Assembly: GCA_029565395.1 (NCBI GenBank)
Contig: JAKQOG010000069.1
Location: 14,322-78,321 of the forward strand
Length of the DNA stretch: 64,000 nucleotides
Direction of reading: 5' to 3'
DNA from: Candidatus Hydrogenedentota bacterium
GTDB lineage: Bacteria > Hydrogenedentota > Hydrogenedentia > Hydrogenedentales > CAILVY01
How positions within the stretch are numbered: the stretch's first letter is position 1; every line of letters starts with the position of its first letter. Positions 8,113 to 57,867 of the stretch are shown here, piece by piece. Position numbers and translations under genes: made by a program. The notes under the pieces are model-generated. The model did not search any database, was not told the DNA's origin, and saw nothing but the letters and a program-made list of their open reading frames with translations.

Positions 8113-8219
8113 GTCTATTGTGGTATAATGGCCATGCGTTGCGGTGAAGGAAGATCTGGCAACGGTGAATGGAGACCGTGGTTATTGAGGAACAGGAAGA
8201 ACGGAAAAGGGTGCGGAAC

Positions 8220-9995
8220 ATGAGAGCAAATGTTATCTTTTGGCCAGTGATTTTGATCATTTGTTTGAGTGCGGGGGCCTTCGCTCAGGAAAATCCGTGC
8301 AACATCGTTGTGTCACGCGATCTGCCCGCCATGTATATTCCAGGAGGAACGGTGGAGGTGGAGTTAACCCTGAGTGGAGGGGAATCCTGTGAAATCCTTG
8401 CCTTGGGAACGTATGAAGCGATTCCGGATGGCTGGACCTTTGTATCGATGAGTCCGATCAGCGGTACGGCGCCCCAAGTTTATCCGGCGGAAGGCGATTC
8501 GGACTTGCTTGAGTTTGCCTGGTTCACGATACCGGCGTTGCCTTGTACTTTTTCATATGTTCTGAATATTCCCTGGGATGCACACGGGGAGGAAACGTTC
8601 ACCGGGAACGCTGAGTACCGTTTATTGGGCGGGCCGTTAATGTCGGAGGAAACGGTTTCGACGATAGCAGGGCCTGAGACCGAGGGCCAGGGGGAGGGGG
8701 AAGCCTGGGGTGAAGCAGAAGGCCAGGGGGAGGGCGAAGCCGGAGGTGTTGGAGAAGGCCAGGGGGAGGGAGAAAGCGGAGATGAGGGGGAAGATGAAGA
8801 AGATGGCGCTGGTGTTAACATGCAATTTGTGCGAGAACTTTCCGTGGAGCGTTACACGCCGGGTCAGCCCCTTGACGTTACGATCACGATAAGTGTTTCG
8901 ACGGCGGCAGGATTAACGGCCGTGGGGTTCTATGAAAGCTTGCCATCGGGATGGGTTTTTAATGGGTTGCGCGGAATAACCGGCGAACCGCCGATTATAG
9001 CCCCGGCGCCGGGAGATATGGGCGTGTTGGAATTTGCCTGGATCCAAATTCCAGGGTTTCCCTACACCTTTGGTTATACCGTCACTCCTCCCGAAAGTTC
9101 AGGGGGTTTGGCGTCTATATGGGGTCAGACTGAGTATCGCACCAATGGGGGGGCATTAAAATCCCCAGTGGTCATCTCTGAAATCAGCGCCGTGGAAGAA
9201 CAAACGGAAGGGGAGGGAGAAGAGGGGGAAGGAGAAGTTGGGGAGGGGGAGGGCGAGGGCGATAATCCCTCAGGAATATCGTTGGATCAACAAATAGAGG
9301 CGGAAGAATATACTCCAGGCGAAGCGTTGGAAGTTGTCATTACCATAGATACAGAGACGCCGCAAGGATTGCGGGCGCTGGGGTTGTATCAGACCCTTCC
9401 AACGGGGTGGGTGTTTAATGGCATGCGTGCCATCAGCGGGGATCTTCCCCTGGTGGCGCCTGAACCCGGCGCCATGAACTATCTGGAATTCGCATGGATC
9501 GCCATGCCCAATTTCCCCTATGTGTTCGCCTACACTGTTACGCCGGCGGAGGATGCCTGCGCGCATGTTCAGATCCATGGCCGGATTGAATACCGGACCA
9601 ATGGCCCCGCGTATTTTACGCTCATTGTCGTTACCCGAATTGCCGGGCCGGGATGTGAACCCCCAAGGGTGATGTATCCCATCGCAAGGGTGTTATATCG
9701 TCATTTTAATTGTGCGGATGCCAATGATGACGGCTATCTCAGTTTCCATGAGGCATGTGAGATTATTCCGGGGCTGACCGCGGGCCAGTTTGCGCAACTC
9801 GATGTCGATCAGGATGTTCAGTTGTCCCCCTTGGAACTTTCCACGTATTTATGCGAACACGGCCCCGCTCATGGGTGCCTCGGTGGCGATTCTGTCTTAA
9901 TTACGTTATGGGACACGGTTAAAGAGTATCTTGGCGATTTAGTCGTGTTCATCTTGTTTATATTTTCATTAATTGTAGGCTACCGGCTGGTGTAG
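8220..9995 (+). CDS. Secreted, membrane-anchored repeat protein: signal peptide, 3 copies of a ~120-aa domain with no family assignment (one A-type, two B-type), Gly-Glu linkers, EF-hand/dockerin-like Ca-binding pair, C-terminal TM anchor
   Basis: Signal peptide MRANVIFWPVILIICLSAGAFA. Domain copies carry LGTYEAIPDGWTFVSM...LEFAWFTIPALPCTFSYVLNIP, then GFYESLPSGWVFNGLRG...LEFAWIQIPGFPYTFGYTVTPPE, then GLYQTLPTGWVFNGMRA...LEFAWIAMPNFPYVFAYTVTPAE. Linkers are EGQGEGEA... and [10 protein letters not shown]. The C-terminus has DANDDGYLSFHE...LDVDQDVQLSPLEL followed by the hydrophobic LVVFILFIFSLIVGYRLV. Confidence 0.7.
   Translation: MRANVIFWPVILIICLSAGAFAQENPCNIVVSRDLPAMYIPGGTVEVELTLSGGESCEILALGTYEAIPDGWTFVSMSPISGTAPQVYPAEGDSDLLEFAWFTIPALPCTFSYVLNIPWDAHGEETFTGNAEYRLLGGPLMSEETVSTIAGPETEGQGEGEAWGEAEGQGEGEAGGVGEGQGEGESGDEGEDEEDGAGVNMQFVRELSVERYTPGQPLDVTITISVSTAAGLTAVGFYESLPSGWVFNGLRGITGEPPIIAPAPGDMGVLEFAWIQIPGFPYTFGYTVTPPESSGGLASIWGQTEYRTNGGALKSPVVISEISAVEEQTEGEGEEGEGEVGEGEGEGDNPSGISLDQQIEAEEYTPGEALEVVITIDTETPQGLRALGLYQTLPTGWVFNGMRAISGDLPLVAPEPGAMNYLEFAWIAMPNFPYVFAYTVTPAEDACAHVQIHGRIEYRTNGPAYFTLIVVTRIAGPGCEPPRVMYPIARVLYRHFNCADANDDGYLSFHEACEIIPGLTAGQFAQLDVDQDVQLSPLELSTYLCEHGPAHGCLGGDSVLITLWDTVKEYLGDLVVFILFIFSLIVGYRLV
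8680..8815 (+). repeat. GAAGGN-type hexanucleotide repeat tract that encodes a Gly-Glu acidic linker
   Basis: DNA (GAGGGCCAGGGGGAGGGG/GAAGCC...)n encodes ETEGQGEGEAWGEAEGQGEGEAGGVGEGQGEGESGDEGEDEEDG. The reverse strand gives a spurious Pro/Ser ORF (8480..8821). Confidence 0.6.
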
Positions 9996-10186
9996 CGAAA
10001 TTTTGATGCCAGAAGACGGATTGGCTTGTGAAGGGGAAAGGGGAAAACACAAGCGCTTTAACGTATTGAATGGTCCTATTGTGTTATAATTTGATTACTT
10101 GATGCGGAAACGCGCGCGTGTCGCTTTTTTAACCGCCGTCTGCGTTGGTTGAATGTACGAACACTATGTGGAATAAGGATTTGGCC

Positions 10187-11128
10187 ATGAAACCGAGCTA
10201 TGTGATGTGGGTAACCGTTCTGTTGGGTGGAATAGTCCTGATGCCGCAGGCAGTGGCGGAGAATCCATTGGGCATGACCCTGAGCAGGGAATTACCGGAA
10301 ACGTATACGGCGGGCGGCACGGTGGAGGTAGAGCTTACGCTGAGTTGTACCGGCGTGGATACAATCCTGGCCTTGGGGGCTTATGAAACCGTTCCCGCGG
10401 ACTGGACCTTTGTCAGCATGAGGGAAGTGAATGGTGCGAAGCCTCAGATAGGTCCGCAAGTGGGCGATTCCGGCACGCTGGAATTTGCGTGGTTTTCCAT
10501 TCCTGCCTTGCCTTGTACCTTTGCTTATACGCTGAATGTCCCCGCCGATGCCCAAGGGTTAAAAACCTTCACCGGGCAGATTGAATATCGCTTAGGCGGC
10601 GGACAATTGTTTTCCGATGACGAAACCTCGACAATTGTGGACGTAGTGACGGAAGGCGAAGGCGCAATAGAAGGCCAAGCCGAGGGCGAGGGCGAAGGCA
10701 TTGTTGAAGGCCAAGGAGAGGGCGAGGGGGAAGGCATTGTTGAGGGCCAAGCCGAGGGCGAAGGCGAAGGCATGACGGAAGGAGAGGCGGTTGATACATT
10801 GGCGGCGGCGGAGACGTTGCAGAATGGGTTTTCACAAGCGGATCAGAATGCGGATGGTTCGCTCAGTTTTGCAGAAGCCTCCACCTTTGCAGCCGGGCTT
10901 ACGGAAGCGCAGTTCAACGAATTGGACACTAATGGCGACGGCAGTGTGACGGCGGTAGAATTGGCGGCGTATATTGAAGCGAACACGCTGGTCTGCGGGT
11001 GCAATTGTAACAAAGCGGAGATGTATTCCGGAGATTGGTTTAAACGTTCCCTTGGCGATCTGTTTCTTGCCGGACTAGGCTTGGTTATTCTTGTGGCGAG
11101 CGCCAGAATGGGCCGGTATGGACGTTGA
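10187..11128 (+). CDS. Paralogous membrane-anchored surface protein: signal peptide, one A-type ~120-aa domain, Gly-Glu linker, EF-hand/dockerin-like pair, CGCNC motif, C-terminal TM anchor
   Basis: LGAYETVPADWTFVSM...GDSGTLEFAWFSIPALPCTFAYTLNVP...FTGQIEYR. Linker EGEGAIEGQAEGEGEGIVEGQGEGEGEG. Ca-binding pair DQNADGSLSFAEAS...LDTNGDGSVTAVELAAYIEAN. Then CGCNCNKA and the TM segment LFLAGLGLVILVASARMGRYGR. Confidence 0.7.
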   Translation: MKPSYVMWVTVLLGGIVLMPQAVAENPLGMTLSRELPETYTAGGTVEVELTLSCTGVDTILALGAYETVPADWTFVSMREVNGAKPQIGPQVGDSGTLEFAWFSIPALPCTFAYTLNVPADAQGLKTFTGQIEYRLGGGQLFSDDETSTIVDVVTEGEGAIEGQAEGEGEGIVEGQGEGEGEGIVEGQAEGEGEGMTEGEAVDTLAAAETLQNGFSQADQNADGSLSFAEASTFAAGLTEAQFNELDTNGDGSVTAVELAAYIEANTLVCGCNCNKAEMYSGDWFKRSLGDLFLAGLGLVILVASARMGRYGR

Positions 11129-11302
11129 GCCGGAAAGACTTTGGAAGTTGATGTATAAGGGGGGCGCAGGCGGTGTGGTATAATCGCGGCAATAATGTGA
11201 AGTTGGGTGGAGTATGTCACCTTTTTCTCTTCCATCCGCGTTAAATTTATGTGGGCGAACACAGGATACAATAAGGGTTTAGCCGTGCAAAGAAGGAATG
11301 TA

Positions 11303-12085
11303 ATGCTGCTGGTGATTATTTTGGCGGCCACGCTGGGATTGATCCCTCAGGCCATGGCCGATAATCCGGTGGGCATGGCGCTGACCCGGCAATTGCCGGG
11401 CACTTATACGCCGGGCGGGCCGGTGGAAGTCCAGTTGACTCTGAGCTGCAGCAATGATGAGGGTGCCATCATGGCCTTAGGGCTGTATGAGACCGTTCCG
11501 GCGGGATGGACCTTTGTCAGCATGCGTGGCGTAAGTGGTGTGAAACCGCAGTTAGGTCCCACGGCAGGTGAATCCGGCATCCTGGAATTCGCATGGTTCA
11601 CCATCCCGGTTTTTCCCTATACGTTTGCATATACCCTGAATGTTCCCGCAAACGCCCAGGGGCAACAAACCTTCACAGGGCAGATTGAATACCGTTTGTC
11701 TGGCGGGGCCTTATTATCTGATTCTGTTGTTTCAACGATGGAAGCCGGCATTTTAGTGGCGGATGCGGAGGCGTTGCGGGACGGGTTTTTACAAGCGGAT
11801 CAGGATGCCAACGGGGCGCTGAGTTTTGAGGAGGCATCGGCCTTTTTAGCGGGCCTTTTGCAGGAACAGTTTGATCAGTTGGACGCAGATGGCGACGGGG
11901 CTGTCACGTTGGCGGAATTGAATGCCTATATCGAAGCGAACACGTCCGGCGGGGGCTGCAATTGCGGCAAGGCGGCGGCCTTTTCGAAGGATTGGTTCAC
12001 GCGTTCCCTGGGCGATATGTTTCTGGCAGGCGCAAGCCTGTTGATCCTGGCGGCCGTCTCTACATTAGGCCGCCGTGAAGAGTGA
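11303..12085 (+). CDS. Paralogous membrane-anchored surface protein: one A-type ~120-aa domain + EF-hand/dockerin-like pair + GGGCNCG motif + C-terminal TM anchor (no Gly-Glu linker)
   Basis: LGLYETVPAGWTFVSMRGVSGVKPQLGPTAGESGILEFAWFTIPVFPYTFAYTLNVP...FTGQIEYR. Ca-binding pair DQDANGALSFEEASAF...LDADGDGAVTLAELNAYIEANT. Then CNCGKAAAFSKDWFTRSLGDMFLAGASLLILAAV. The SD sequence GAAGGA precedes the ATG at 11303. Confidence 0.7.
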   Translation: MLLVIILAATLGLIPQAMADNPVGMALTRQLPGTYTPGGPVEVQLTLSCSNDEGAIMALGLYETVPAGWTFVSMRGVSGVKPQLGPTAGESGILEFAWFTIPVFPYTFAYTLNVPANAQGQQTFTGQIEYRLSGGALLSDSVVSTMEAGILVADAEALRDGFLQADQDANGALSFEEASAFLAGLLQEQFDQLDADGDGAVTLAELNAYIEANTSGGGCNCGKAAAFSKDWFTRSLGDMFLAGASLLILAAVSTLGRREE

Positions 12086-12131
12086 TTGGATGGAAAAGCG
12101 ATTTGAAACAAGAGAGGCAAAAAGACTAACC

Positions 12132-13562
12132 ATGGTCTATCCAGCAATGATACGAAGCCATGTTTTTTGCGTTGGCGCAAGCGTTTTAGGACTTCTTCTA
12201 GTTATCCTAAGCGGGGGGGCATGGGCGGATGCGATCTCCAAGGCCGGCGCAACCGTGCAGGAGGGGGAACTCAATTCGATAGATATGCAGCTTTTCCGGC
12301 AGTTTACGGTAATGGAATATACGCCGGGCCAGCCGTTTGAAGTAACGATTACGATGAGCGCTTCAACCACAGAGGGATTGACGGCCATTGGATTGTATGA
12401 GACCATGCCCCCCGGATGGGTTTTTAACGGGATGCGTGGTTTGACGGGGGATCCGCCCACGGTTTCCCCCCAGCCGGGGGATATGGGCGTGTTGGAATTC
12501 GCCTGGATTCAGATTCCCGAATTGCCGTACACCTTTGCGTATATCGTCACTCCGCCGGAAACGGGGGGCGGCGCGGTTTTTATCTCAGGTCAAATTGAGT
12601 ACCGCACCACTGGAGGGGCGCAAAAATCGCCGCCGGTTATTTCTAATCTGAACGGCCAGGACCGGATTGCTCCTACTATTACGGTGCTTGGCGCCAATCC
12701 CCTGGAGGTGACGCAAAATACCGCCTTTGCCGATCCGGGCGCTACGGCGAATGATAATGTGGACGGAGACATCAGCAGCCGCGTTCAGGTGATCGGGAAT
12801 GTGGATACGTCCACGCTGGGCATGTATACGCTGACCTACCGGGTCAGCGACCAGGCGGGGAATCAAGCGGAAGCCACGCGAACCGTACGAGTGGTTTCGG
12901 CATCCACCGGAACGGGCGGGGTGTATACCGGGGGCGGCACTTCTTCCACGGGCCGTACCGGCGGTACAAGCCGGAGCTCAGCGGGCACTTCTTCCGCGGC
13001 CGCGGCGTCCAAGCAAAATACCCAGAAACCGGCCAATGTGAATGTCAATGTAACTCCCGATACTACAGCCACTGCACGTCTGGCGGAAATGATGGCGAAG
13101 CGTGAAGAAACGCAAAACAAGCTGAAGGAAGCGCAAAAGCATGTGGCCACGCCGGCGAAGAATGAAGGCGGGAAACCGCCTGCAAAAAAACCGGGTGACG
13201 CCACGGGCACCCCCGCCGCTTCTACGGAAGGGCAAGCGGAGGAAACTACGGATGCCACCACTGCAAAACCCGCTGAACCACCTAAGGAGGAAGAAACCGC
13301 GGCGCCCGTTGCCGAGGAAAATACGGCGCCGGTAGCGTCAAAACCGCCGAAGGTATCCACTACGCCCCCATCCCCGGGGATTTTTGCCGTGTTGAAGGAG
13401 CGGTTTGCCCAGATGACGCCTTCGCAACTAGCTAGTTTAATGGTGGGCCTCGCCGTCGCACTTGCATTGTTAGCGTTTACCCTGCTGGCCTGGAAAATAG
13501 CCTATAGCCCGCCTGTCAGACGCCGTCCATCTATTGAAAATCCTGTTGAAGAAGAAAAATAA
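12132..13562 (+). CDS. Paralogous surface protein: signal peptide, one B-type ~120-aa domain, Ig-like (DUF5011-type) domain, Ala/Thr/Pro/Lys-rich low-complexity stalk, C-terminal TM anchor
   Basis: GLYETMPPGWVFNGMRGLTGDPPTVSPQPGDMGVLEFAWIQIPELPYTFAYIVTPPE. The Ig-like segment APTITVLGANPLEVTQNTAFADPGATANDNVDGDISSRVQVIGNVDTSTLGMYTLTYRVSDQAGNQAEATRTVRV matches the DUF5011 pattern. The low-complexity stalk spans about aa 280-440. The TM anchor is LASLMVGLAVALALLAFTLLAW. Confidence 0.65.
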   Translation: MVYPAMIRSHVFCVGASVLGLLLVILSGGAWADAISKAGATVQEGELNSIDMQLFRQFTVMEYTPGQPFEVTITMSASTTEGLTAIGLYETMPPGWVFNGMRGLTGDPPTVSPQPGDMGVLEFAWIQIPELPYTFAYIVTPPETGGGAVFISGQIEYRTTGGAQKSPPVISNLNGQDRIAPTITVLGANPLEVTQNTAFADPGATANDNVDGDISSRVQVIGNVDTSTLGMYTLTYRVSDQAGNQAEATRTVRVVSASTGTGGVYTGGGTSSTGRTGGTSRSSAGTSSAAAASKQNTQKPANVNVNVTPDTTATARLAEMMAKREETQNKLKEAQKHVATPAKNEGGKPPAKKPGDATGTPAASTEGQAEETTDATTAKPAEPPKEEETAAPVAEENTAPVASKPPKVSTTPPSPGIFAVLKERFAQMTPSQLASLMVGLAVALALLAFTLLAWKIAYSPPVRRRPSIENPVEEEK

Positions 13563-13880: not shown

Positions 13881-16800
13881 ATGAGGCAGGAAATGCAGTC
13901 CACCATCCGGTATTTAAAGGGTGCTTTCGTTATTGCGTGTGTTGTGGTATTGCTGTGTCCACTGGCGGCTGCTTATCATTCGGCCGACATTGACCGAGAC
14001 AATACGATCAACCTATCCGAGTTGTTGCGCACAATACAGTTTTATAATAGCGGCGGCTATCATTGTGATGCCGGAGGGGAGGACGGCTATGCGCCCGGCC
14101 CTGGCAGCAATGCATGTTTACCCCACGCCTGTGACTATGCGCCTCAGGATTGGGTGATCAATCTTTCTGAATTGCTGCGGATGATTCAGATTTACAACAT
14201 TGGAGAGTATTACGACTGTCCTGAAGGTGAAGACGGCTTTTGCCCAGGAAAGGATCCGCTGTTGAATGAAGGCGAAGCCGAAGGTGAAGGCGAAGCCGAG
14301 GGTGAAGGCGAAGCCGAGGGTGAAGGGGAAGCCGAGGGTGAAGCTGAAATTGTTGTGTTTCCCGATCCGGGGCTGGATGCAGCAGTGCGCGAGGCCATCG
14401 AAAAACCCACAGGGCCCATTTATACAACCGATCTCGCCGGTACAGGATTCACGTTCTTAAATGCGCTCTATAGAGGCATTGTGGACCTCACCGGCTTGGA
14501 GCATTGCCTGGACCTTACGCATCTATACCTGAGCAGTAATAATGTTCCTGACATCAGCCCTCTTGGCGGGCTTACCAACCTAATTTACCTTACGTTGGGT
14601 TTTGATGAGATCTCGGACATCAGCCCCTTGGCCGGGTTAGTGAATCTCGAACACCTATATCTTGGTGGCAACCAGATTTCGGCCATTGGCGCATTGACCG
14701 GACTCACCAACCTGACGTACCTGGACATCAGTGACAACCAGATCTCGGATATCAGCGCCCTTTCCGGACTTGTCAATTTAACGGAGTTGTATCTCAGTGA
14801 CAATCAGATTTCGGTTATTGGTTCTGTGGCCAGTTCCACGAATCTGACGGACCTTGAACTCGCCAGCAACCAAATCTTGGACATTAGTCCGCTGATCAAT
14901 CTTACCAACCTGACGCATCTGGACCTTGATAGCAACCAAATCTCAGATATCGATGCCGTGGCGGGGCTCACCAACTTGACGGACCTTCACTTGTTCAATA
15001 ATCAAGTCTCGGATATCGCCGCTGTGGCGGGTCTCATCAACCTGACACACCTGTTCCTCAGCAAAAACGAGGTTTCGGATATTGGTCCTGTGGCGGGACT
15101 CAGCAACTTGGCGGAACTATATCTCTACAGAAACGAGGTTTCGGACATTAGTCCCGTGGCGGGACTTACCTCTCTGACGGAATTGTATCTCAACACAAAC
15201 CAGATTTCGGACATTGGTCCTGTAGCCGGGCTTACCAATCTGACGCGTCTGGATCTCAGTTTTAACGAGATCTCGGCTATCGACACTCTATCCGGACTCA
15301 CAAATCTGACAAATCTCGGTCTTGCAAGCAACCTAATCTCAGATATTAGCCCGCTTGTTGGCAATCCGGGTATTGGACCGGCTGATTTCGTGTACTTGAC
15401 GGATAATCCCCTCAGCCAAGACGCGCTATGTATTGATATCCCAATCCTGGAATCGCGGGAGGTCCACGTATATTACGATGGGGTATGCGGAGGTGAAGGT
15501 GAGGGTGAGGGCGGAGAAGAAGGGGAAGGCGGGGCCGAAGGCGAAGGCGAAGGCGAAGGTGAAGAAGAGGGTGAAGGAGAGGGTGAAGGAGAGGGTGAAG
15601 GAGAGGGTGAAGGTGAAGGCGAAGGTGAAGGTGAGGGTGAAGGGGAGGGTGAAGGGGAGCCCTCTTTATGCGACATCGACTCGTTGGACACTTTCTATAC
15701 CATGGCACTTATAGTTGTTGATACTGATGAAGATGGAGCGCTTTCGCTGGCGGAAGCAGAGGCGTTGTTCCCGGATGCGGGAACCTACTGGGAGAGCGTT
15801 GATGCCAACGGCGACGGTGTGGTCTCGCGTGAGGAATTCGTGAGTTCACCGGTGATTTTGAGTATTTTTCCGGTGATAGACGTGGATGGCGATAACGCGC
15901 TAACGCTTGCAGAACTTCAAACATTTGCCTCGGGCATTACGCAGGCAATGTTTAGTCTTTTGGACCACGACAGTGACAGGTTCGTTGAATGTCTGGATCT
16001 TGTTGCGCGCGATGAACATCTTCACCCCATCCCGGATGATGCTGACGGCGATTTCCTGGCGAATGATGAGGAGCGGATTCTGAGCAAGAATCCGCTTATC
16101 CCGGATGAAGACGGTAATGGCCTGCCGGATGGCGTGGATCTGGCGCGCTTGCTCTATGGAATGGTTGAAGGGCTGGAGGAATTCTCGTATCCGCCGATGG
16201 GGGATTTGCCCGCAGATCACGTTTTCAAGGTGATGGAGTACCTGCGGTGTGAAACGCCGTGTTCCGTCTGCGGTGAGATGTGCAACTGCGGCAATATCAT
16301 CGTTGTTAATCCGATGTTGCATGAGACCTGGGAGCAGGGGTTCCGTCTGCCCTTCATGGCGTTTCACTATATGGCCCATGACTCGTTGAGCTTCGGGTGG
16401 GACGGCAGTGCTTACATGGACCGTGTGGATGTGGCGGGTTTGATGGCCGCCCTTATTCTTTTGGGGGCGAATCCGCATTGGCTGCCCGTGGAGGATGATC
16501 TCGACGGCGACTTGCTCATGGCAAGTGAGGAAAGCGAATTGGGCTTGAATCCGGAAGTGCAGGATGAAAACAGCAACGGCATTCCGGATGGCGCGGATGT
16601 GGCGATGGAGACCGCGGCGCAGATTGAAGAACTCGAGTGGATCTACCTTGAGGGGCAGCCGCCGTACGAGATATGGCCACCTGACTTCGAGAAGACGCTG
16701 CCCACTGATCGCCTGTACGTACTGCATTTCGACTATATGGTTGACTGCGTTTACCACTGCTCGATCTGCGGAGAGGATGTGACCATCGGCCACTTGCAGG

Positions 16801-19148
16801 TGGTTAATCCGGCTTTGCATGAAACGTGGCAGGAGGGGATAGTCATCCCGTTATGCGCCTGGCATTTCCTTGAACAAGGCTCGTTCAGCTATTTCTCCGG
16901 CATGTGCGGTCCTGAGGGCACAATTGCGCGCATCGATCCGGTGGAATTGTCTGAGGTATTGAATACGCCTCCCTACACGGGCCCTCAATTTGGGAAATAT
17001 TATGAGCCGGTTGAACCTCCGGCGACGCCCAATGCCGCCGGCTACGCACTCCCCCTGGATTTGGGCGATATTACGAATTATGACCATGTCGAGGAGGCCA
17101 TGATCTCGATTCAACTCGATTTGGGAGATACATCATTGAGCGCAAACGGTTTTGCCGTGTATGGCAATATTGATTGGCCTTTCCTGATGCCAGGGGTGCC
17201 TTTCCCGCCCGATGACATTATTGTGCCCTACGAGTATCTGCGCCTGCGGGATGTTCCCATTTTTATTACTGCTGACACGTTGCTGCATCTGTATCATGTG
17301 CAGTTCGACGAAACGCTTAGGGATATCGAGGAACGCGAGTTTGCCGCGGATATTGAGGCGTTGACCGCGGCGTTGCTTGAACGTGCTCAAGCCCAGTTCG
17401 CGCAGTACACAGGCGATCTGGCCGAGGCGGCCCGCCGGAACGTGGCGTATCTTGCCGTGGCCCAGCAGTTGCTTGCGCCCGGCGCCGAGGTACCGGCCCC
17501 AGTGGCCTTGGAAGTGGCCGGTGAACTGGCGAAGATCGCGGCGCACGAGGGTTTCGATGCCAGCGACATTTTCCTCTACAACGAGGATTACTCGCAGTAT
17601 GTGCCGCGCGGCCATTATACGCGGAGCGAAACCCTTGAGCGTTACTTCCGCGCCATGATGTGGTATGGCCGCATGGCATTTTTGCTCAAGGGTGCTGAAA
17701 ACTGGGGACCGATAGGGGAAGCATTGGTGAGTGAATACGACGCGCGCATCCAGACGCTGCAGGCGGTCCTGCTGGCCACCGCAGTGGAGGCGGTGGATGT
17801 CGGAGCACGCAGCGGCCGTGAAGTGTGGGATCGCATGTATGCGATTACGGCCTTCTATGTTGGCCTCGCCGACGATCTTACGCCGTATGAGTATCTTGAC
17901 GTGATCAACCGCCTTTTCGGGTCGGACTTCGACCCCACCGAACTAGAGGATGAACAGGCTTTCTTCACGCTCAAGACAAGGCTTGCCTTGTTGCGCACGC
18001 CGCAGATATTCGGAGGCACGGGTAATGTTTTTGTGGTGCCGCCGGTTACCCCCGATTCACTCAACCTTGTGCTTGAAAAAACCAAGGGCATGCGTTTGAT
18101 GGGTCAGCGGTTCATCCCCGATTCCTACATGTTTCAGCATCTGGTTTTCCCTGAAGTGCTCTGGTACACCGGCAGCGTCGATCCGGCGCCCTTCACCCTG
18201 GGTGAAACGGGTGGCGGCCTTGGCCGCTGCTATCCGCGCGGGCTTGACGTGATGGCCGTGCTCGGATCGTCACTTGCCGAAACCATACTTGTTGAGGGCA
18301 GCGACACGCTGTATGAAGGGTACGATGCGCGGTTGGCTGAGTTACGAGAGGAGTTCGCCGGATTCCGGCCTGCTGACTGGCATCGCAATCTTTATTGGGC
18401 GTGGCTGGACATGCTTAATCCTCTCATCACCCCGCTGCCGGAAGGCTATCCCAATTTCATGCGGACGGAGGCATGGGGCAAGAAATCGCTCAATGCCGCG
18501 CTTGCATCGTGGACTGAACTGCGCCACGATACCATCCTCTATGCCAAGCCAAGCTATACCCCCGGTTTCACGTATGAGCCGGATGTAACCGGCTACGTCG
18601 AGCCGGTCCCGGAATTTTATGGACGCCTGCTCGCCCTTACGCGCATGACACGTGAAGGATTGAGTGATTTTAGTGCGCTCTCGCCTGAAGCTGAAGCACG
18701 GTTGGTCAGTCTGGATTCGGTGCTCGAACGGCTCCTTGATCTTGCGGGGAAGGAGCTTGCCAACGAGTGGCTGACGGAAGACGATTACGAGTACATTCGC
18801 ACGTTCGGCAAGGTGCTTGAGAGCGTGGTGTTTGGGTTGAACGAGGGTGAAGGCGAAGGCGAGGGCGTGGCGGAAAGTCTTCGAACCACGCTGGTTGCCG
18901 ATGTGCATACGCATGGTATCGAAGCACTGGTGGTCGAAGAGGCCGTGGGCAATGTGGACTTGATCGCCGTCGCCTGTCCCACCCCTGCCGGCGAGGTCTT
19001 CCTCGCTCTTGGGCCCGTGTTCGCCTACTACGAGTTCAAGCATCCCATGAATGACCGGCTTACGGATGAAGCCTGGCGCGAATTGCTTGCCTCAGTGGAT
19101 GCGCCCAAACGTTCGGAATGGTACACCCTGGTGGTGGACGAGAAATAG
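13881..19148 (+). CDS. 1756-aa secreted multidomain protein: N-terminal tandem atypical dockerin-like module, Gly-Glu linker, about 25 internalin-type LRRs, Gly-Glu linker, EF-hand-like triplet, duplicated TSP3-like/Cys (CxxCGE...VVNPxLHETW) modules, ~800-aa C-terminal domain of unknown function
   Basis: Signal peptide LKGAFVIACVVVLLCPLAAA. Dockerin-like repeats [27 protein letters not shown]...EDGYAPGPG and INLSELLRMIQIYNIGEYYDCPEGEDGFCPG. LRR units such as LTNLTYLDISDNQISDISALSGL. EF-hand-like repeats DTDEDGALSLAEA, DANGDGVVSREEF and DVDGDNALTLAEL. Cys modules CSVCGEMCNCGNIIVVNPMLHETWEQG and CSICGEDVTIGHLQVVNPALHETWQEG. Confidence 0.75.
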   Translation: MRQEMQSTIRYLKGAFVIACVVVLLCPLAAAYHSADIDRDNTINLSELLRTIQFYNSGGYHCDAGGEDGYAPGPGSNACLPHACDYAPQDWVINLSELLRMIQIYNIGEYYDCPEGEDGFCPGKDPLLNEGEAEGEGEAEGEGEAEGEGEAEGEAEIVVFPDPGLDAAVREAIEKPTGPIYTTDLAGTGFTFLNALYRGIVDLTGLEHCLDLTHLYLSSNNVPDISPLGGLTNLIYLTLGFDEISDISPLAGLVNLEHLYLGGNQISAIGALTGLTNLTYLDISDNQISDISALSGLVNLTELYLSDNQISVIGSVASSTNLTDLELASNQILDISPLINLTNLTHLDLDSNQISDIDAVAGLTNLTDLHLFNNQVSDIAAVAGLINLTHLFLSKNEVSDIGPVAGLSNLAELYLYRNEVSDISPVAGLTSLTELYLNTNQISDIGPVAGLTNLTRLDLSFNEISAIDTLSGLTNLTNLGLASNLISDISPLVGNPGIGPADFVYLTDNPLSQDALCIDIPILESREVHVYYDGVCGGEGEGEGGEEGEGGAEGEGEGEGEEEGEGEGEGEGEGEGEGEGEGEGEGEGEGEGEPSLCDIDSLDTFYTMALIVVDTDEDGALSLAEAEALFPDAGTYWESVDANGDGVVSREEFVSSPVILSIFPVIDVDGDNALTLAELQTFASGITQAMFSLLDHDSDRFVECLDLVARDEHLHPIPDDADGDFLANDEERILSKNPLIPDEDGNGLPDGVDLARLLYGMVEGLEEFSYPPMGDLPADHVFKVMEYLRCETPCSVCGEMCNCGNIIVVNPMLHETWEQGFRLPFMAFHYMAHDSLSFGWDGSAYMDRVDVAGLMAALILLGANPHWLPVEDDLDGDLLMASEESELGLNPEVQDENSNGIPDGADVAMETAAQIEELEWIYLEGQPPYEIWPPDFEKTLPTDRLYVLHFDYMVDCVYHCSICGEDVTIGHLQVVNPALHETWQEGIVIPLCAWHFLEQGSFSYFSGMCGPEGTIARIDPVELSEVLNTPPYTGPQFGKYYEPVEPPATPNAAGYALPLDLGDITNYDHVEEAMISIQLDLGDTSLSANGFAVYGNIDWPFLMPGVPFPPDDIIVPYEYLRLRDVPIFITADTLLHLYHVQFDETLRDIEEREFAADIEALTAALLERAQAQFAQYTGDLAEAARRNVAYLAVAQQLLAPGAEVPAPVALEVAGELAKIAAHEGFDASDIFLYNEDYSQYVPRGHYTRSETLERYFRAMMWYGRMAFLLKGAENWGPIGEALVSEYDARIQTLQAVLLATAVEAVDVGARSGREVWDRMYAITAFYVGLADDLTPYEYLDVINRLFGSDFDPTELEDEQAFFTLKTRLALLRTPQIFGGTGNVFVVPPVTPDSLNLVLEKTKGMRLMGQRFIPDSYMFQHLVFPEVLWYTGSVDPAPFTLGETGGGLGRCYPRGLDVMAVLGSSLAETILVEGSDTLYEGYDARLAELREEFAGFRPADWHRNLYWAWLDMLNPLITPLPEGYPNFMRTEAWGKKSLNAALASWTELRHDTILYAKPSYTPGFTYEPDVTGYVEPVPEFYGRLLALTRMTREGLSDFSALSPEAEARLVSLDSVLERLLDLAGKELANEWLTEDDYEYIRTFGKVLESVVFGLNEGEGEGEGVAESLRTTLVADVHTHGIEALVVEEAVGNVDLIAVACPTPAGEVFLALGPVFAYYEFKHPMNDRLTDEAWRELLASVDAPKRSEWYTLVVDEK
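14266..14345 (+). repeat. GAAGGY hexanucleotide microsatellite encoding the (EGEA)n linker
   Basis: gaaggcgaagccgaaggtgaaggcgaagccgagggtgaaggcgaagcc... encodes EGEAEGEGEAEGEGEAEGEGEAEGEAE. Confidence 0.7.
14480..15400 (+). repeat. Internal ~66-bp repeats that encode 22-aa leucine-rich repeats
   Basis: The LxxLTNLTxLxLxxNQISDIxPLAGL unit recurs about 14 times in the protein segment this DNA interval encodes (about 25 across the whole LRR region, to aa ~510). Confidence 0.7.
15487..15662 (+). repeat. GAAGGN / GAGGGT hexanucleotide repeat tract (second Gly-Glu linker)
   Basis: Encodes GGEGEGEGGEEGEGGAEGEGEGEGEEEGEGEGEGEGEGEGEGEGEGEGEGEGEGEP. The reverse strand yields the spurious PSPSPS ORFs 15412..15708 and 15473..15691. 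Confidence 0.7.
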
Positions 19149-27603: not shown

Positions 27604-30054
27604 ATGAGAAAGAGGAATATGTTGTTTGTGATGCTGGCGGTGGCCGCAGTTGGCCTGCCAGGAATCGCCCTGGCCGAAGATCCGATTGAACTGACGGAGT
27701 ACAATTTCTGCGACTATTTCAATCAAGTGGCAAGCAATGAATTGCTGGATGATCTAGGCGAAGAATGGGCCTACCTGATAGAGCGGCTTCAGCCGAATAA
27801 CGCCGATATCAATGGGTCATTTTACATTGATACGACGGATTCGGATAACATGATCATTAACGTGGAAGGGAATGGAATCCTGGATGCGGCGAATGAATTT
27901 GGATTGCTGCAGGCTATATTGGAGGATGGCACCTTCAATAATGGCGTGTTGAATTACGATCAGGTTTGGGCGGCATGGGAACAAAACGTCACCCAATTCC
28001 GGGCGGATATCGGGCCGGCTATAGCCATTCTTGATGCGATTATACCGGGGATCGCTCCGATCCTTGAGGCTTATGTTACCTTGGGCGATGGCGATTATAC
28101 GATTTTTTCTGCTCCTACTCCCGAAAATCCTGATGTCCCGGTGGTGGTTCAAGGAACGGGATCCTTCGGCTTTGTAGCGTGCTTAATGGCGGTACTGAAT
28201 GCGTTTGTGCAGGACTATCTGGGGTTCGGTTTTACCGATCCGACGCTGGACAAAGAGAATTATTCCTTATTGACCGATTTGCTGCCGGGTAGTGATGCGG
28301 ATGGCGATGGCAGCAGTAATTATTGCGAGTATTACTATTTTACCCCGGCGTTATGCCCGGAAGAGCCGGTGGAAGGTGAAGTGGAAGGTTCAGTAGAAGG
28401 TTCAGTAGAAGGCGAAGGAGAAGGTTCGGCAGAAGGTACTGTGGAAGGTGAAGCGGAAGGCGCCAAACTCGCAATAGAAGGCGAAGGCGAAGGCGAAGGT
28501 GCGGAAGAAGGCGAAGCGCATGTTCCGGCGGATCCGAGTACGGTGTATGTAACCGCTGCCTTAGATGCGACCTTTATCCCGGAATACTGCCCTATGGGCG
28601 AACCCTGCGAAATCACCCTGTCCGGAACTGAGGTAGTGCCGCCTGTGGACACGGTTGCTACCGGCACCATGACTGCGCAGCCGTTACTCTTTAATTTTAC
28701 GAGTGATGTGACCCTTCGGATTACCGTTGAGCACACGGTAGTTGATCCCGCGGAAGTGGGAATATATCAGGGGGCTGTTGGAGAAGGTGGAACGTTGATT
28801 GTTAACTTAGGCGATCCAACCAGTCCAGTGGTGCATCAGTTGACCCCTGAAGAAGTAGAACTTGTGATGCAAGATTTACCGCTCTATGTGGGAGTCTCCA
28901 GTGTCTTGTACCCCGGCGGAGAGATTCGAGGGCAGATTGAATGCGGCGGAACCCCCGAAGGCGAAGGCGCCGAGGGTGAAGGTGAAGGCGAAGGCGCGGA
29001 AGGTGAAGGTGAAGAAGGCGAGGGCGCGGAGGGTGAAGGCGAAGGTGAAGAAGGCGAGGGCGCGGAAGGTGAAGGTGAAGGTGAAGGCGAGGTTTGCGGG
29101 CCTGATGGGCTGTATGGACAAGCCCCGGATAACTCGATCCTATCGTTCAGTGATGATGCCGCCTCGAATGTCATGTTTGATAACTTCTCCGGTGTAACCA
29201 ATGACATTGGCGGTGTGGTCTGGTGGGGCATCAATTCCGAGGGAGATCGTGTTACAGCGTGCACCCGTGAGCCGGATACATACCAGGTGTCATTCTATGA
29301 GGATGATTCCGGGTTGCCCGGCACCCAAGCTGCTTCGTTTACCCTAACGCCGGTCCGTTCGGAAGTAGCCCTGCTTACCGAAGGGGCAAGCGCGGGCCTG
29401 ATGCTTTACCGGTTTGAGGCGGGGTTGCCCTCGGTGGTCTCTTTAGCCTCCGGATGGGTTTCCATAAAAGGTGTTAATGTGGCCACGGGATGCTATTTCT
29501 TATGGATGGGTTCAAGTGATGGCAATGGCAGCAGCGTGTTTGGCGAACCCGGCAATTATACGGTGGTAGGCCCTGATTTGGCGTTCTGCCTGACCACGAC
29601 GGGTCCTATTGAAGGTGCGGCCGAAGGTGAAGGCGAAGGCGCTGAGGGTGAAGGTGAAGAAGGTGAAGGAGCCGAAGGCGAAGGTGAAGGGGCCGAAGGC
29701 GAAGGGGCCGAGGGTGAAGGTGAAGGCGCCGAGGGCGAAGGTGAAGAGGGCGAAGTCCCTTCGGAGTGCCATGCCGCTGACCAGAACTGCGATAATCTGG
29801 TGAATCTCTCCGAATTGTTGCGCGTCATCCAATTCTTCAATTCCGGCGGGTATCATTGCCAGGCAGGAACGGAAGATGGCTATGCGCCTGGTCCCGGCGA
29901 CACAGGTTGCGCACCTCATACCAGCGACTATAATTCGCAGGATTGGTTGATCAACCTTTCTGAATTGCTCCGGCTGATCCAGTTCTTCAATTCCGGCGGG
30001 TATCATCCGTGCGCGGGCGGGGAAGACGGCTTCTGCCCCGGTCCTGCAAAATAA
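27604..30054 (+). CDS. Secreted multidomain protein: signal peptide, N-terminal domain, Gly-Glu linker, CHRD domain, Gly-Glu linker, beta-rich domain, Gly-Glu linker, C-terminal tandem atypical dockerin-like module
   Basis: Signal peptide MLFVMLAVAAVGLPGIALA. CHRD hallmark LYPGGEIRGQIECGG. Dockerin-like repeats [33 protein letters not shown] and INLSELLRLIQFFNSGGYHPCAGGEDGFCPGPAK at the extreme C-terminus. The SD sequence AGGGAGG precedes the ATG. Confidence 0.75.
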   Translation: MRKRNMLFVMLAVAAVGLPGIALAEDPIELTEYNFCDYFNQVASNELLDDLGEEWAYLIERLQPNNADINGSFYIDTTDSDNMIINVEGNGILDAANEFGLLQAILEDGTFNNGVLNYDQVWAAWEQNVTQFRADIGPAIAILDAIIPGIAPILEAYVTLGDGDYTIFSAPTPENPDVPVVVQGTGSFGFVACLMAVLNAFVQDYLGFGFTDPTLDKENYSLLTDLLPGSDADGDGSSNYCEYYYFTPALCPEEPVEGEVEGSVEGSVEGEGEGSAEGTVEGEAEGAKLAIEGEGEGEGAEEGEAHVPADPSTVYVTAALDATFIPEYCPMGEPCEITLSGTEVVPPVDTVATGTMTAQPLLFNFTSDVTLRITVEHTVVDPAEVGIYQGAVGEGGTLIVNLGDPTSPVVHQLTPEEVELVMQDLPLYVGVSSVLYPGGEIRGQIECGGTPEGEGAEGEGEGEGAEGEGEEGEGAEGEGEGEEGEGAEGEGEGEGEVCGPDGLYGQAPDNSILSFSDDAASNVMFDNFSGVTNDIGGVVWWGINSEGDRVTACTREPDTYQVSFYEDDSGLPGTQAASFTLTPVRSEVALLTEGASAGLMLYRFEAGLPSVVSLASGWVSIKGVNVATGCYFLWMGSSDGNGSSVFGEPGNYTVVGPDLAFCLTTTGPIEGAAEGEGEGAEGEGEEGEGAEGEGEGAEGEGAEGEGEGAEGEGEEGEVPSECHAADQNCDNLVNLSELLRVIQFFNSGGYHCQAGTEDGYAPGPGDTGCAPHTSDYNSQDWLINLSELLRLIQFFNSGGYHPCAGGEDGFCPGPAK
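28370..28510 (+). repeat. GAAGGN hexanucleotide repeat tract (Gly-Glu linker 1 of the CHRD protein)
   Basis: Encodes EGEVEGSVEGSVEGEGEGSAEGTVEGEAEG...EGEGEGEGAEEGEA. Confidence 0.6.
28945..29095 (+). repeat. GAAGGN hexanucleotide repeat tract (Gly-Glu linker 2)
   Basis: Encodes [46 protein letters not shown]. Spurious reverse ORFs 28876..29121 and 28884..29264 arise from it. Confidence 0.6.
29615..29760 (+). repeat. GAAGGN hexanucleotide repeat tract (Gly-Glu linker 3)
   Basis: Encodes [48 protein letters not shown]. Confidence 0.6.
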
Positions 30055-43147: not shown

Positions 43148-45958
43148 TCACAGCGGGCAGAATCCGTCCTCGGTGGATTTTTCCGGACACCAGAAATATC
43201 CGCCGGAATTGTAGAATTGGATCATGCGCAAGAGTTCGGTGACGTTAATCCGCCAATCCTGCGTGTTGAAGTCGCTATCGTGCGGAGGACAGGTTTCAGT
43301 CCCTGAACCGGGCGCATATCCGTCTTCTGAACCGGGCTGACAATGAAGAGCGCCGGAGTTATAAAATTGGATGACGCGCAGCAATTCGGAAACGCTGATG
43401 TGAAAATCGCCATCTTGGTCCGCGGCATGAATGATTTCCAATTCTTCTCCCTCGAACACGCCCTCTCCTTCGAGTGGCATGCCTTCCAGTTCACCTTCCC
43501 CGCCTTCACTTCCGCCTTCGGCGGAACCTTCGGGCATGCCTTCGGCTTGCCCTTCGGCTTCTCCGCCTTCACTTCCGCCTTCGGCGGAACCTTCGGGCAT
43601 GCCTTCGGCTTGCCCTTCGGCTTCTCCTTCTTCTTCCCCGCCTTCACTTCCGCCTTCTGCTGAACCTTCGGGCATGCCTTCGGCTTGCCCTTCGGCTTCT
43701 CCTTCTTCTTCCCCGCCTTCACTTCCGCCTTCGGCGGAACCTTCGGGCTGCCCTTCGGCTTCTCCTTCTTCTTCTCCGCCTTCACTTCCGCCTTCGGCGG
43801 AACCTTCGGGCATACCTTCGGCTTGCCCTTCGGCCTCTCCTTCTTCTCCCTCGCCTTCCTGTGAAAAACCTTCAAATTCTCCTTCTATGCCGCCTTCCCC
43901 TTCTTCTGGTTCCCCTTCCGTGGCAAAGCCTTCTTCTTCGCCTTCGCCGATTTCTCCTTCCATGCCGCCTTCCCCTTCCAATACGCCTTCCGATTCACCT
44001 TCAGCGGTGAAGGTCTCCGCGAAATAGTGCAGAAGGCCCGCGGAATACCGGATGCATTCCGGCAATAATTCCCGGGCATAAATATCGAGCAGACTGTCGC
44101 CTACCGTAAATTCAGTGTTTTTTAGCCGGTTATTGTCGAAGTTGCAGGGTTGAAAACAGGTGCTGCCGTCGCGGAGGTTTTCAACATACACTTTTCCCGC
44201 GGTGAATTCGTTTCCGTCCTGCATATAGGTGGTGAAATTGCCGTCCGCGGGCCACCACTCATCATCACCCAGATCGAACAAGGGGTTTGGATCGTATTCT
44301 CCCACCAATTTATTGTTGCGATCTTTCAAGGTCCAGCGGGTGTCTTCAAACCATCCGTCATGATAGGCCAGTTTGAACATGCGGCCCAGATCGTGATCCA
44401 GCCAATCCTCCTGTTCATCCGGATCATCCACGAGAATGGCGTCGTGGGCGGCCAGGGCGTAGGAATAATCCGCCATGTTTTGGAGGAAATTCTCGATGGA
44501 CGGATTCTCCGGCAGCACGGGCTCCAGTCCCTCCGCCGGCATGGATAATCCGTTCTGTTCCATTTCCTCCAGCCAAAGTTCAAAATCATCCCCGGCAGAG
44601 TCCAGGTGATTATCCACATGGCTGTGTGCGGGCACGCTCATATCTTGCAGCAAATGCAATACCTGGCCTAGCAGGTGATATCCTGCGTTGTATCCGAGAA
44701 GGCTGTTTTCCGCAAAGGCGGCTTCCGCTTTGTTCCAATGTTCAATGGCGCTTTGCACTGCGGTATTCTGTATGCCGGGATCACATGCATAGATGGGAAT
44801 ATGCGGCAATCCCGCGCCTGTATGGGCATTGAAAAAATGACGGTTTGCGCTTTGGCAGAGATCTCCCAATGAACAGGCGTTGTTGCCGCAATCCTGCAAG
44901 TCTTCTTCAAGAACGGCATCATGGACTTCTGTGTACGCGTCGCCTTGGTAAAAAAATACGTCATTGAACTGGTTCTGTTCCAACACCGAATAGGCGGCCT
45001 CGAAAAATGACTGATGCGTGGACCCCTGGAATTTAGTGAAGGCCTTTTCCGATCTGGGCACAAATATTTCTTGCCCCATGCGCCAACGGAGCAATTGTGC
45101 GGCGGCGCGCGCCGCAGGTCCGCTGGACTGGGCAATGCCGGTTAATGTTTCCTTTAGTGTAAGATCCGGTTCCTCCGCCATGGCTAATACAGCGCATTTT
45201 GCGGTATCGGGATCAGGATCGTTGACCAAGCCCAGCCAAATGGATTGCCGTGCCTTCGGATCCTTTACAAACTGGAGTTGTCTGCGGATTTGCGACAATC
45301 GCGCTTCCGCATGCCATGGAAAGTTGGGATCATTGGCTATTTTGTCCAAAACCACGCCTGTCTTGGAATCCGATAGATACCCTAAGCCGATGACTGCCAC
45401 CCGCTGCACAGAAAGTGTGCCGGTGCGTACCGATTGAAGTAATAGAGCGGTTCCCTGTGAATTACCCAAGGCGGCCAAGGCACAGGCGGCGGTTACACAC
45501 ACGCTAGGCCGGGCATCATGCAGGCAAGGGGAAATCAGGGCAGCATCTGCAATATCACCCCGTTCGCCCAGCGCCGCAAGGCATGCCCGCAATTCGGCGC
45601 CATGGCCCGATGCCTCGGCTTGTCTAAATGCATTTCGCATTTCCGGCAGCAATGATTTATCCCCGATGAAACGCAAGGCCTGGATGGCGTGCTCCCGCAC
45701 CCGTGGATCTGAATCATTTAATACGCCGGCGATTTCAGGCGCGGCAGCATGGGTCCGGGTTAACCGGAAGAAATCACACGCCAGACGTTTCTCTTCCTTG
45801 GCACCTGCATTAAGCAGTTCATACATCTGCCGTATCGCGCTTGCCCGATCTTCAAGAAGACTATCCATCAGGGCTTCTCCCGCAGGGGGAGAGGAGAACG
45901 TTGCGGATCCGGTGGAGGCTATTAGCACCCCAATGAAAACCTTACATAATCCTAACAA
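43148..45958 (-). CDS. Secreted protein: signal peptide, HEAT-repeat region, zinc-dependent phospholipase C-like domain, long Gly-Glu repeat linker, C-terminal tandem atypical dockerin-like module
   Basis: HEAT-like repeats ([21 protein letters not shown]). The H-x-x-x-D...P-x-H motif [19 protein letters not shown] is of the Zn-PLC type. The linker has about 4 copies of [25 protein letters not shown]. The C-terminus has [35 protein letters not shown] and [33 protein letters not shown]. Confidence 0.7.
43431..44030. repeat. Tandem ~81-bp repeats (4-5 copies) plus GAAGGN-type hexanucleotide repeats that encode the Gly-Glu linker
   Basis: Near-identical units ...cttcacttccgccttcggcggaaccttcgggcatgccttcggcttgcccttcggcttctcc... 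(minus-strand coding). They produce the spurious plus-strand Pro/Ser ORFs 43431..44027 and 43474..44010. Confidence 0.75.
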
Positions 45959-56887: not shown

Positions 56888-56931
56888 ACACCCTCGCTTT
56901 GTGCGGAAGTTCCAACGGGAAGAAGCCATTT

Positions 56932-57867
56932 TCAGGTTACCGAGGCGAGCAAGGTGAAAATATTGTCGAGAATGCTCACCCAGGTTTTGCTCACCGGGTA
57001 TTGCGTGGGGTATTTTACGAAGGCCACATGACCGTCCAGGTACAGGACATTCCCGCCGCCGGGGATATGATTGAACCGGCTCATGGTATCGCCTGGGATG
57101 GTGCTCTGGACCATGTCGAACATGACCACGATTTCGGTCTGGGCTTTGCTGCTTGCAGCCGGATTGTTGATGTCGGTGATAAAGAACCGTTCGATGCCTT
57201 CCCGCAGCCGATAGATGGTGGTTGGGCCTCGCTCTTCGTGTTCAAACTCAAAATCATTGTCGTAATTTTCAAAGGCCAATTCGGGATGCGCCATGACTTC
57301 CACAAATAGATTCAGCAGCGTATCGATAAGGTTTTGTGAATAGTCCGTGCCCGGTTGTGCCGGATAGACATTGTCGCCGCCGCCGGACGCGAGCAGATAG
57401 TGCTGCGGGGCCAGCGCCCAGCCGATGTAATAATACGACACGGAACTCATGGCGCAGGGATCAAACTGATGCTCGCCATTCCCCGTAAAATACCAGTTGT
57501 CTTCCGAGACCGAAATGCCGTCGGCGTCCGATGGACAAATCAGGATGTTGGGATCGTTCAAGTATTCCGGGTAAACCGCCGGACAATTAAACACAAAGTC
57601 TTCAAAATTGGACTTGTCGCAAAAGTAATCCGGGGGCAGGAAACTGCTGTCCCGCAACTTTAATGAAGGAAATTTGCCAGCTTTGTCTTCATTCGCATAC
57701 ATCTTATAGACCAGCCCCATTTCCTTGAGGTTATTCTGGCAACTGGATCGCCGCGCCGCTTCCCGCGCCCGGGCCAGCGCCGGCAACAGAATGGCCGCAA
57801 GAATCCCGATGATGGCAATCACGACCAGCAATTCGATTAGAGTGAATCCAACGCGCCTTGTCTTCAT
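56932..57867 (-). CDS. DUF1559 protein with a prepilin-type N-terminal cleavage/methylation domain and a C-terminal H-X9-DG motif
   Basis: [46 protein letters not shown] at the N-terminus. [15 protein letters not shown] at the C-terminus. This family is hugely expanded in PVC-superphylum genomes. Confidence 0.85.

Follow-up and report, generated by a model that had tools for sequence, protein, structure and literature searches.

The stretch analysed here (the window) comprised 64,000 nucleotides of contig JAKQOG010000069.1 (positions 14,322 to 78,321, forward strand) from the Candidatus Hydrogenedentota bacterium assembly GCA_029565395.1 (lineage CAILVY01); coordinates below are those of the window unless another contig or locus is named. 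Three large exported proteins (carriers) encoded in it each harbored one copy of the same module, which was ~94 residues long and composed of a tandem pair of ~47-residue repeats. An original prediction, made from the letters alone, had described an atypical dockerin-like tandem module with a Cys-rich insert in three large secreted proteins, and the shared module was indeed seen in all three open reading frame (ORF) translations. The module copies and their carriers were as follows:

13977-14253, plus strand: module copy 1, N-terminal in carrier 1 (repeat 1 at 13977-14117, repeat 2 at 14118-14253)
29770-30051, plus strand: module copy 2, last 94 codons of ORF 27604-30054 (CHRD protein)
43151-43432, minus strand: module copy 3, last 94 codons of ORF 43148-45958 (HEAT protein)
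13881-19148 (ORF from 13803), plus strand: carrier 1, with signal peptide, module, Gly/Glu linker, LRR array, Gly/Glu linker, EF-hands, two Cys-rich repeats, and DUF3160
27604-30054, plus strand: carrier 2, with signal peptide, N-terminal domain of no assignment, Gly/Glu linkers, CHRD, a further unassigned domain, Gly/Glu linker, and module
43148-45958, minus strand: carrier 3, with N-terminal hydrophobic leader, HEAT repeats, ~340-residue unassigned region, long Gly/Glu-rich linker, and module

Apart from the module, the carriers were unrelated to one another, as had been claimed: Pfam identified DUF3160 (6.6e-195), LRR_4 (6.2e-62), and EF-hand families in carrier 1, CHRD (1.9e-10) in carrier 2, and HEAT_2 (2.1e-12) in carrier 3. 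The start of carrier 1 was probably Met27 of the ORF from 13803, and an exact look-up of the CHRD carrier returned no record. Copy 1 abutted the predicted signal peptide (..CPLAAAY, followed by HSAD) and was succeeded by a GEAEGE linker, while copy 3 lay downstream of a Gly/Glu-rich repeat linker of ~230 residues (DNA tandem repeat 43495-43858, Tandem Repeats Finder). A six-frame regular-expression scan of the whole 64 kb recovered six half-repeats, which made up these three pairs, and none beyond them. The minus-strand copy had been located correctly by the original prediction, but its range was shifted out of frame by one base; translation of the whole ORF displayed the module. The copies ended in ..EDGFCPGK (copy 1), ..EDGFCPGPAK (copy 2), and ..EDGFCPL (copy 3). 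Nucleotide identity among them was 55-79%, with 2-10 synonymous codon differences per pair across 22 loop and helix codons. Because of these many synonymous differences, the copies are best read as old paralogs under purifying selection and not as recent DNA repeats; a recent duplication or an assembly artefact was ruled out by the same divergence.

An AlphaFold2 model of the module (input sequence: copy 2, 29770-30051; 123-sequence alignment) had a predicted local distance difference test score (pLDDT) of 94.7, by which disorder was ruled out and the expectation of a folded element upheld. In each repeat, a Ca-type loop of 12 residues led directly into a helix of 13 residues (LSELLRxIQF[FY]N), after which came a beta-hairpin of ~20-25 residues that contained Cys (SGGYHC..G.EDG[YF].PG); DSSP assigned coil to residues 1-12, helix to 13-25, hairpin to 28-40, coil to 41-62, helix to 63-75, and hairpin to 78-90 of the model. 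The entering helix was missing ahead of both loops in this assignment, and since no helix preceded either loop, the predicted unit is a loop-helix 'F-hand' and not an EF-hand of the helix-loop-helix form.

Column statistics over 221 modules gave the following picture: (i) the repeat-1 loop was of the canonical EF type (D1 91%, N/D3 84%, D/N5 94%, I8 87%, and E12 100%), and 141 of the 221 repeat-1 loops matched the PROSITE EF-hand pattern PS00018; (ii) the repeat-2 loop displayed a different, equally conserved, and non-canonical motif S-D-Y-N-P-Q-D-W; (iii) the helix residues L10, S11, E12, L13, L14, R15, I17, Q18, and N21 were 79-100% conserved in both repeats across paralogs; and (iv) exactly four Cys were present in 177 modules. 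In the window, PS00018 was matched by the repeat-1 loop in two of the three copies, including DIDRDNTINLSEL of copy 1. The consensus proposed originally captured repeat 1 but not repeat 2, whose conserved loop was S-D-Y-N-P-Q-D-W-x-I-x-L-S-E and not D-x-D-x-D. Two disulfides are suggested by the four conserved cysteines (predicted pairs C30-C47 and C81-C89, numbered along the module), and Ca2+ binding by the features of the loops; the near-invariant helix residues fit a single partner shared by the paralogs. The module ended in ..EDGFCPG(P), with no hydrophobic stretch.

The module was compared with Pfam (2025 copy), NCBIfam 20.0, and the PDB. No Pfam or NCBIfam family reached threshold on any window copy, and only sub-threshold EF-hand matches were obtained (best EF-hand score on an isolated window module 17.3 bits, against a cut-off of 25). 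The hmmsearch check originally proposed with Dockerin_1 and EF-hand models gave weak EF-hand matches but nothing at threshold on the three segments. Among 123 homologs, 34 were matched by EF-hand_6 (E <= 0.01). For sequence relatives in the PDB, phmmer returned no match and a profile search only insignificant EF-hand loops (E >= 0.33). At the level of fold, the solved structures nearest to the module model were dockerins by two programs, dockerin-containing chains accounted for 10 of the top 12 Foldseek matches, and the best structural match was 2ozn_B, a chain from the NagJ-NagH cohesin-dockerin complex, containing the non-cellulosomal C. perfringens NagH dockerin. The module is dockerin-like in layout but falls outside the dockerin family of Pfam. 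The claim that its Cys-rich hairpin extension is foreign to dockerins was borne out; with no Pfam or NCBIfam model at threshold and no PDB sequence relative, the module was also not a described sorting domain.

In the searchable literature, (i) nothing combined Hydrogenedentota with EF-hands, (ii) the works naming Hydrogenedentes together with dockerins were, judged by title, general digester or metagenome surveys, (iii) the motif string occurred in no relevant work, and (iv) two genome-centred Hydrogenedentota papers did not mention dockerins, cohesins, EF-hands, or secretion. A description of the module was absent from Pfam, NCBIfam, the PDB, and this literature. What is new is the module family, the unusual way in which it is built, and the extent to which it has multiplied in an uncultured phylum; the concept of a docking module is not new.

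An exhaustive hidden Markov model search of 1.84 billion cluster representatives yielded 3027 clusters (50% identity) at E <= 1e-3 and 1595 at E <= 1e-30. A word-indexed search gave 217 matches; the named ones were almost all Hydrogenedentes or Hydrogenedens, together with single Kiritimatiellae and Paceibacterota labels, and many matches were 'partial' fragments starting within Gly/Glu repeats. Such repeats may break metagenome assemblies, which would explain many of the fragmentary database matches. At least 516 genomic copies were confirmed in GTDB species genomes, and among the best 80 copies the number of module-bearing ORFs per metagenome-assembled genome (MAG) was at least 42 in CAYYRW01, at least 22 in CAILVY01, and at least 22 in CAYXPO01. 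Two module-rich MAG records were titled 'uncultured Nitrospirales', an unconfirmed label. The module is a previously undescribed extracytoplasmic family found so far almost only in Hydrogenedentota, and the non-Firmicute lineage assumed by the original prediction is this phylum. The enolase encoded in the window was identical to HPO13622.1, which is also encoded in assembly GCA_035393045.1. Several isolated module fragments carried the Joint Genome Institute (JGI) label 'ribosome-associated protein YbcJ (S4-like RNA binding protein)', which is almost certainly a mis-annotation, judging from the faintness of the S4 profile matches (E 0.03-0.1).

The module was C-terminal in 89 of 92 copies at genomic loci; of the 132 best representatives in which two or more repeat motifs were present, 118 had the module C-terminal, 7 N-terminal, and 7 internal. 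N-terminal copies directly after the signal peptide were also present in the homologs P0119, P0087, and P0077, and a few proteins contained two or more modules. At related loci, Gly plus Glu made up at least 50% of the 40 residues preceding the module in 58 of 86 carriers. Across the 51 complete carriers, 62 Pfam families were counted; most were domains of surface or adhesin type and some were enzymes, with InlB B-repeat, Ig-like, PASTA, beta-helix, CHRD, LRR, FG-GAP, and peptidase M14 among them. Such a distribution is that of a promiscuous tag placed at the termini of exported proteins.

The layout of the module, its predicted fold, its conservation, the spread of the family, and the variety of carriers are results of computation. 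They are most readily explained by a tag that docks or anchors its carriers Ca-dependently to a shared receptor, a function that we infer and give a rough probability of 0.55. This reading follows from the signal peptides, the flexible linker, the single folded terminal module, the tolerance of an N-terminal position, the tens of carriers per genome, and the near-invariant helix surface. The passenger proteins would be exported by Sec, as their N-terminal signal peptides suggest; the module would then fold extracytoplasmically, taking up Ca2+ in repeat 1 at least and forming disulfides, and would hang on a flexible acidic Gly/Glu linker; its near-invariant helix surface would dock the passengers onto one common cell-envelope receptor, and dozens of different adhesin-like and enzyme domains would in this way be displayed on the cell. 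Linkers of this kind were located in the window as follows:

14267-14343, plus strand: Gly/Glu-rich flexible linker adjoining module copy 1 (Tandem Repeats Finder)
15491-15655, 28372-28460, 28984-29092, 29620-29746, and 43495-43858: similar Gly/Glu linkers (Tandem Repeats Finder)

Further Gly/Glu-rich linker repeats were observed at 8685-8785 and 10670-10773. Acidic linkers ((GE)n or GEAEGE; a 25-46-residue unit in the HEAT protein) connected domains in nearly every exported protein of the window.

The sole receptor candidate seen for this docking was a cohesin-fold or DUF11-like domain of ~125 residues on the putatively anchored proteins of 8169-13562, where six such beta-sandwich domains were distributed over four adjacent genes immediately upstream of carrier 1:

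8169-9995, plus strand: candidate receptor or scaffold protein, with signal peptide, three ~125-residue beta-sandwich domains, Gly/Glu linkers between them, EF-hand region, and C-terminal hydrophobic anchor
8298-8672, 8814-9188, and 9273-9647, plus strand: sandwich domains of the 8169-9995 protein
10145-11128, plus strand: candidate receptor protein, with one sandwich domain (10271-10639), Gly/Glu linker, EF-hand pair, and C-terminal hydrophobic anchor
11207-12085, plus strand: candidate receptor protein and paralog, with one sandwich domain (11369-11743), EF-hand pair, and C-terminal hydrophobic anchor
12075-13562, plus strand: candidate receptor protein, with sandwich domain (12279-12656), Bact_surface_Ig-like domain, low-complexity stalk, and C-terminal transmembrane helix

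The model of the 10271-10639 domain had a pLDDT of 96.8, and by model comparison the ~125-residue domain appeared cohesin-like in fold (cf. 2w1n, the cohesin-containing construct of NagJ). Pfam gave only a sub-threshold NPCBM_assoc match for the 8169-9995 protein, while the 12075-13562 protein matched Bact_surface_Ig-like (3.8e-23) and had an orthologous gene pair at locus L108. The sandwich-domain profile found nothing significant among PDB sequences; a homolog search with a single sandwich domain gave no matches, and one with the six-copy alignment gave three. Across 27 metagenomic and 77 genomic loci, 7 of 38 sandwich-domain ORFs also bore the module, often directly abutting it.

Three proteins combining the two elements were observed in their own right. 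L095 (metagenome contig LGOV01098959.1, 3-4097) had an N-terminal canonical Dockerin_1 (26.4 bits, above cut-off), and in the same protein the new module was flanked by two 125-residue sandwich domains; Dockerin_1 and the new module are therefore distinct kinds, able to coexist in one protein. L098 (7886-10645) displayed about ten EF-hand pairs followed by a sandwich domain and, four residues later, the module. L101 (3-1505) contained a divergent module with no cysteines beside a sandwich domain, then bacterial TSP3 repeats and a hydrophobic helix with an RRRR tail, this helix and tail resembling a sorting anchor.

Several results weigh against the docking reading or against its most specific form. 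On the side of the module, (i) Dockerin_1 (PF00404) was unmatched on every window copy even at E <= 1, and it matched only 2 of the 123 homologs (E <= 0.01), with none in the other 121; (ii) hhalign of the family profile with a sequence taken as a CelS dockerin aligned only the Ca loop (20 columns, 3.3% probability); (iii) the repeat-2 loop was not a canonical Ca site, PS00018 being matched in 2 of 221; (iv) the C-terminal bias of ~90% is also compatible with a sorting signal; and (v) no conserved neighbour gene was found at 77 carrier loci, which contained antisense ORFs of the carriers and unrelated genes only, and carrier synteny yielded no receptor or processing enzyme. The predicted likeness to dockerins held for the doubled loop-helix layout and, tentatively, for the three-dimensional fold, to which dockerins were the nearest solved structures, but not for the profile match, nor for loop position 12, which was Glu, and only repeat 1 was canonical.

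On the side of the candidate receptor, Cohesin (PF00963) was unmatched in the window sandwich proteins and their homologs, while the homologs were above threshold for NPCBM_assoc/NEW3 (58 bits, 7.6e-16) and DUF11 (33 bits, 1e-07). The anchored-sandwich gene pair at L108 was orthologous to that of the window, the 20.6 kb fetched there contained no module, and adjacency of the sandwich cluster to carrier 1 was dropped as proof of partnership on that ground; the sandwich domain may be one more passenger or stalk domain. A cellulosome-like system with tandem-repeat anchored paralogs had less support than originally envisaged: the repeat domains appeared cohesin-like in fold, but neither the family matches nor the co-occurrence of cluster and module pointed to it. 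A pairing of the cohesin-dockerin type is offered as a hypothesis rather than a finding, because the sandwich homologs never matched Cohesin and the cluster occurred elsewhere with no module nearby. That the module docks Ca-dependently onto cohesin-fold or DUF11-like sandwich domains, as a phylum-wide and sequence-novel analogue of the cohesin-dockerin pair, is a doubtful proposition at present; if true, dozens of adhesins and enzymes per cell would be assembled into a modular surface complex.

Some of the same results suit an anchor that binds Ca-dependently to an envelope glycan, an extracellular polymer, or a mineral surface, in the manner of S-layer homology (SLH) or carbohydrate-binding modules (CBMs) and with no protein receptor. 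The candidate sandwich receptor was not specifically tied to the module, a conserved partner gene was lacking near the carriers, and a sugar site assisted by Ca could be built from the exposed conserved F19, F/Y20, Y25, H26, Y1', and W6' together with the acidic E32/D33 of the hairpins; however, the closest folds were protein-binding dockerins and not lectins or CBMs, and no CBM or SLH profile was matched. This alternative is unlikely, though it stands closest to the docking tag among the rivals.

Slightly less probable again is a C-terminal sorting or secretion domain read by an outer-membrane machinery, comparable to the C-terminal domains (CTDs) of the type IX secretion system (T9SS), and either removed or used for covalent attachment. 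Such a signal would account for the extreme C-terminal position tabulated above, for the tens of carriers in a genome and the great diversity of their passengers, and for the very high conservation among paralogs, which fits one recognising machine. It would not account for copies lying right after a signal peptide (window copy 1; 7/132), for internal copies (7/132), or for multi-module proteins; moreover, no Pfam or NCBIfam sorting-domain model (T9SS CTD, PEP-CTERM, LPXTG, or similar) was matched, the module had neither a hydrophobic helix with a basic tail nor the beta-sandwich of T9SS CTDs, and no candidate machinery was seen adjoining the carriers.

A generic extracellular Ca-binding stabiliser, that is, an EF-hand-derived and disulfide-braced cap for folding, solubility, or Ca sensing with no targeting role, is improbable: EF-hand profiles were the only sequence families matched, and many carriers and neighbours held extra ordinary EF-hand pairs, but a single terminal copy on a long flexible linker, ~60 unrelated domain types, and a solvent-facing helix surface that stays near-invariant in thousands of paralogs would all be unexpected of it.

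Other features of the window were noted as well. In carrier 1, two Cys-rich units of ~150 residues each (~16000-16950; residues ~760-1060) were located between the EF-hand region and DUF3160; they displayed the motif ..C.TPCSVCGE.C.CG..VVNP.LHETW[EQ].G.., each was preceded by an acidic D-x-D-G-D / NP..DE..NG.PDG stretch resembling bacterial TSP3 repeats, and neither was covered by Pfam. The protein of 56932-57867 (minus strand) opened with a type IV pilin-like N-terminal methylation motif, and its ORF adjoined a sulfatase-like gene (57947-59392) and a glycosidase-like gene (55547-56929), all three by reading of the letters.

To our knowledge, Hydrogenedentota is an uncultured phylum of global distribution, and next to nothing has been described of its cell biology. 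The module marks a large share of its exported proteome, and with at least 42 module proteins in one MAG it therefore offers a direct way to study how the surface of these cells is built. Should it act in docking, it would extend the dockerin type to a new sequence family with traits unseen in known dockerins, namely hairpins braced by disulfides, two unlike loops, and near-invariant helices; a small, Ca-switchable binding pair of high specificity, if it exists, would be useful for protein engineering. A profile model of the family would allow the annotation of thousands of 'hypothetical protein, partial' entries.

With dockerins (types I-III and NagH) the module shares a tandem pair of loop-helix F-hands that lack an entering helix, a placement that is mostly C-terminal and occasionally N-terminal, internal, or doubled, and flexible linkers to many unrelated exported passengers, at tens of copies per genome. 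It differs in that (i) Dockerin_1 is not matched and each helix is followed by a Cys hairpin, with four Cys in all; (ii) it comprises 94 residues, whereas dockerins have ~60-70; (iii) Glu occupies loop position 12 in 100% of copies, as in EF-hands, where dockerins usually have Asp; (iv) the second loop is non-canonical, conservation among paralogs is far higher, and there is no demonstrated cohesin partner; and (v) its linkers are (G/E)n, unlike the Pro/Thr-rich linkers of cellulosomal proteins. With canonical EF-hand pairs (EF-hand_1/5/6/7, PS00018) it shares a textbook 12-residue EF loop with Glu12 in repeat 1, but it contains no entering helices, its second loop is not EF-like, and it carries hairpin inserts and putative disulfides. 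The genes of 8169-13562 resemble cohesin/scaffoldin clusters in having one to three domain copies per protein, linkers, membrane anchoring, and four paralogous genes in a row beside a module carrier, and in that some proteins combine sandwich domain and module; unlike such clusters, their sandwich domains lack a PF00963 match, the homologs match NPCBM_assoc/NEW3 and DUF11, and the cluster also occurs with no module in the 20.6 kb around it.

It is well established that many lineages possess non-cellulosomal cohesin/dockerin systems (PMC9012536, citing Peer et al. 2009), and the same source describes expanded non-cellulosomal dockerin/cohesin repertoires in anaerobic methanotrophic (ANME) archaea, with a function unrelated to cellulose. 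The ANME repertoires are matched by standard Pfam dockerin and cohesin models, to which the Hydrogenedentota module is invisible; what the two share is that modules of the docking type have multiplied in a lineage-specific way, on varied extracellular proteins of uncultured anaerobes.

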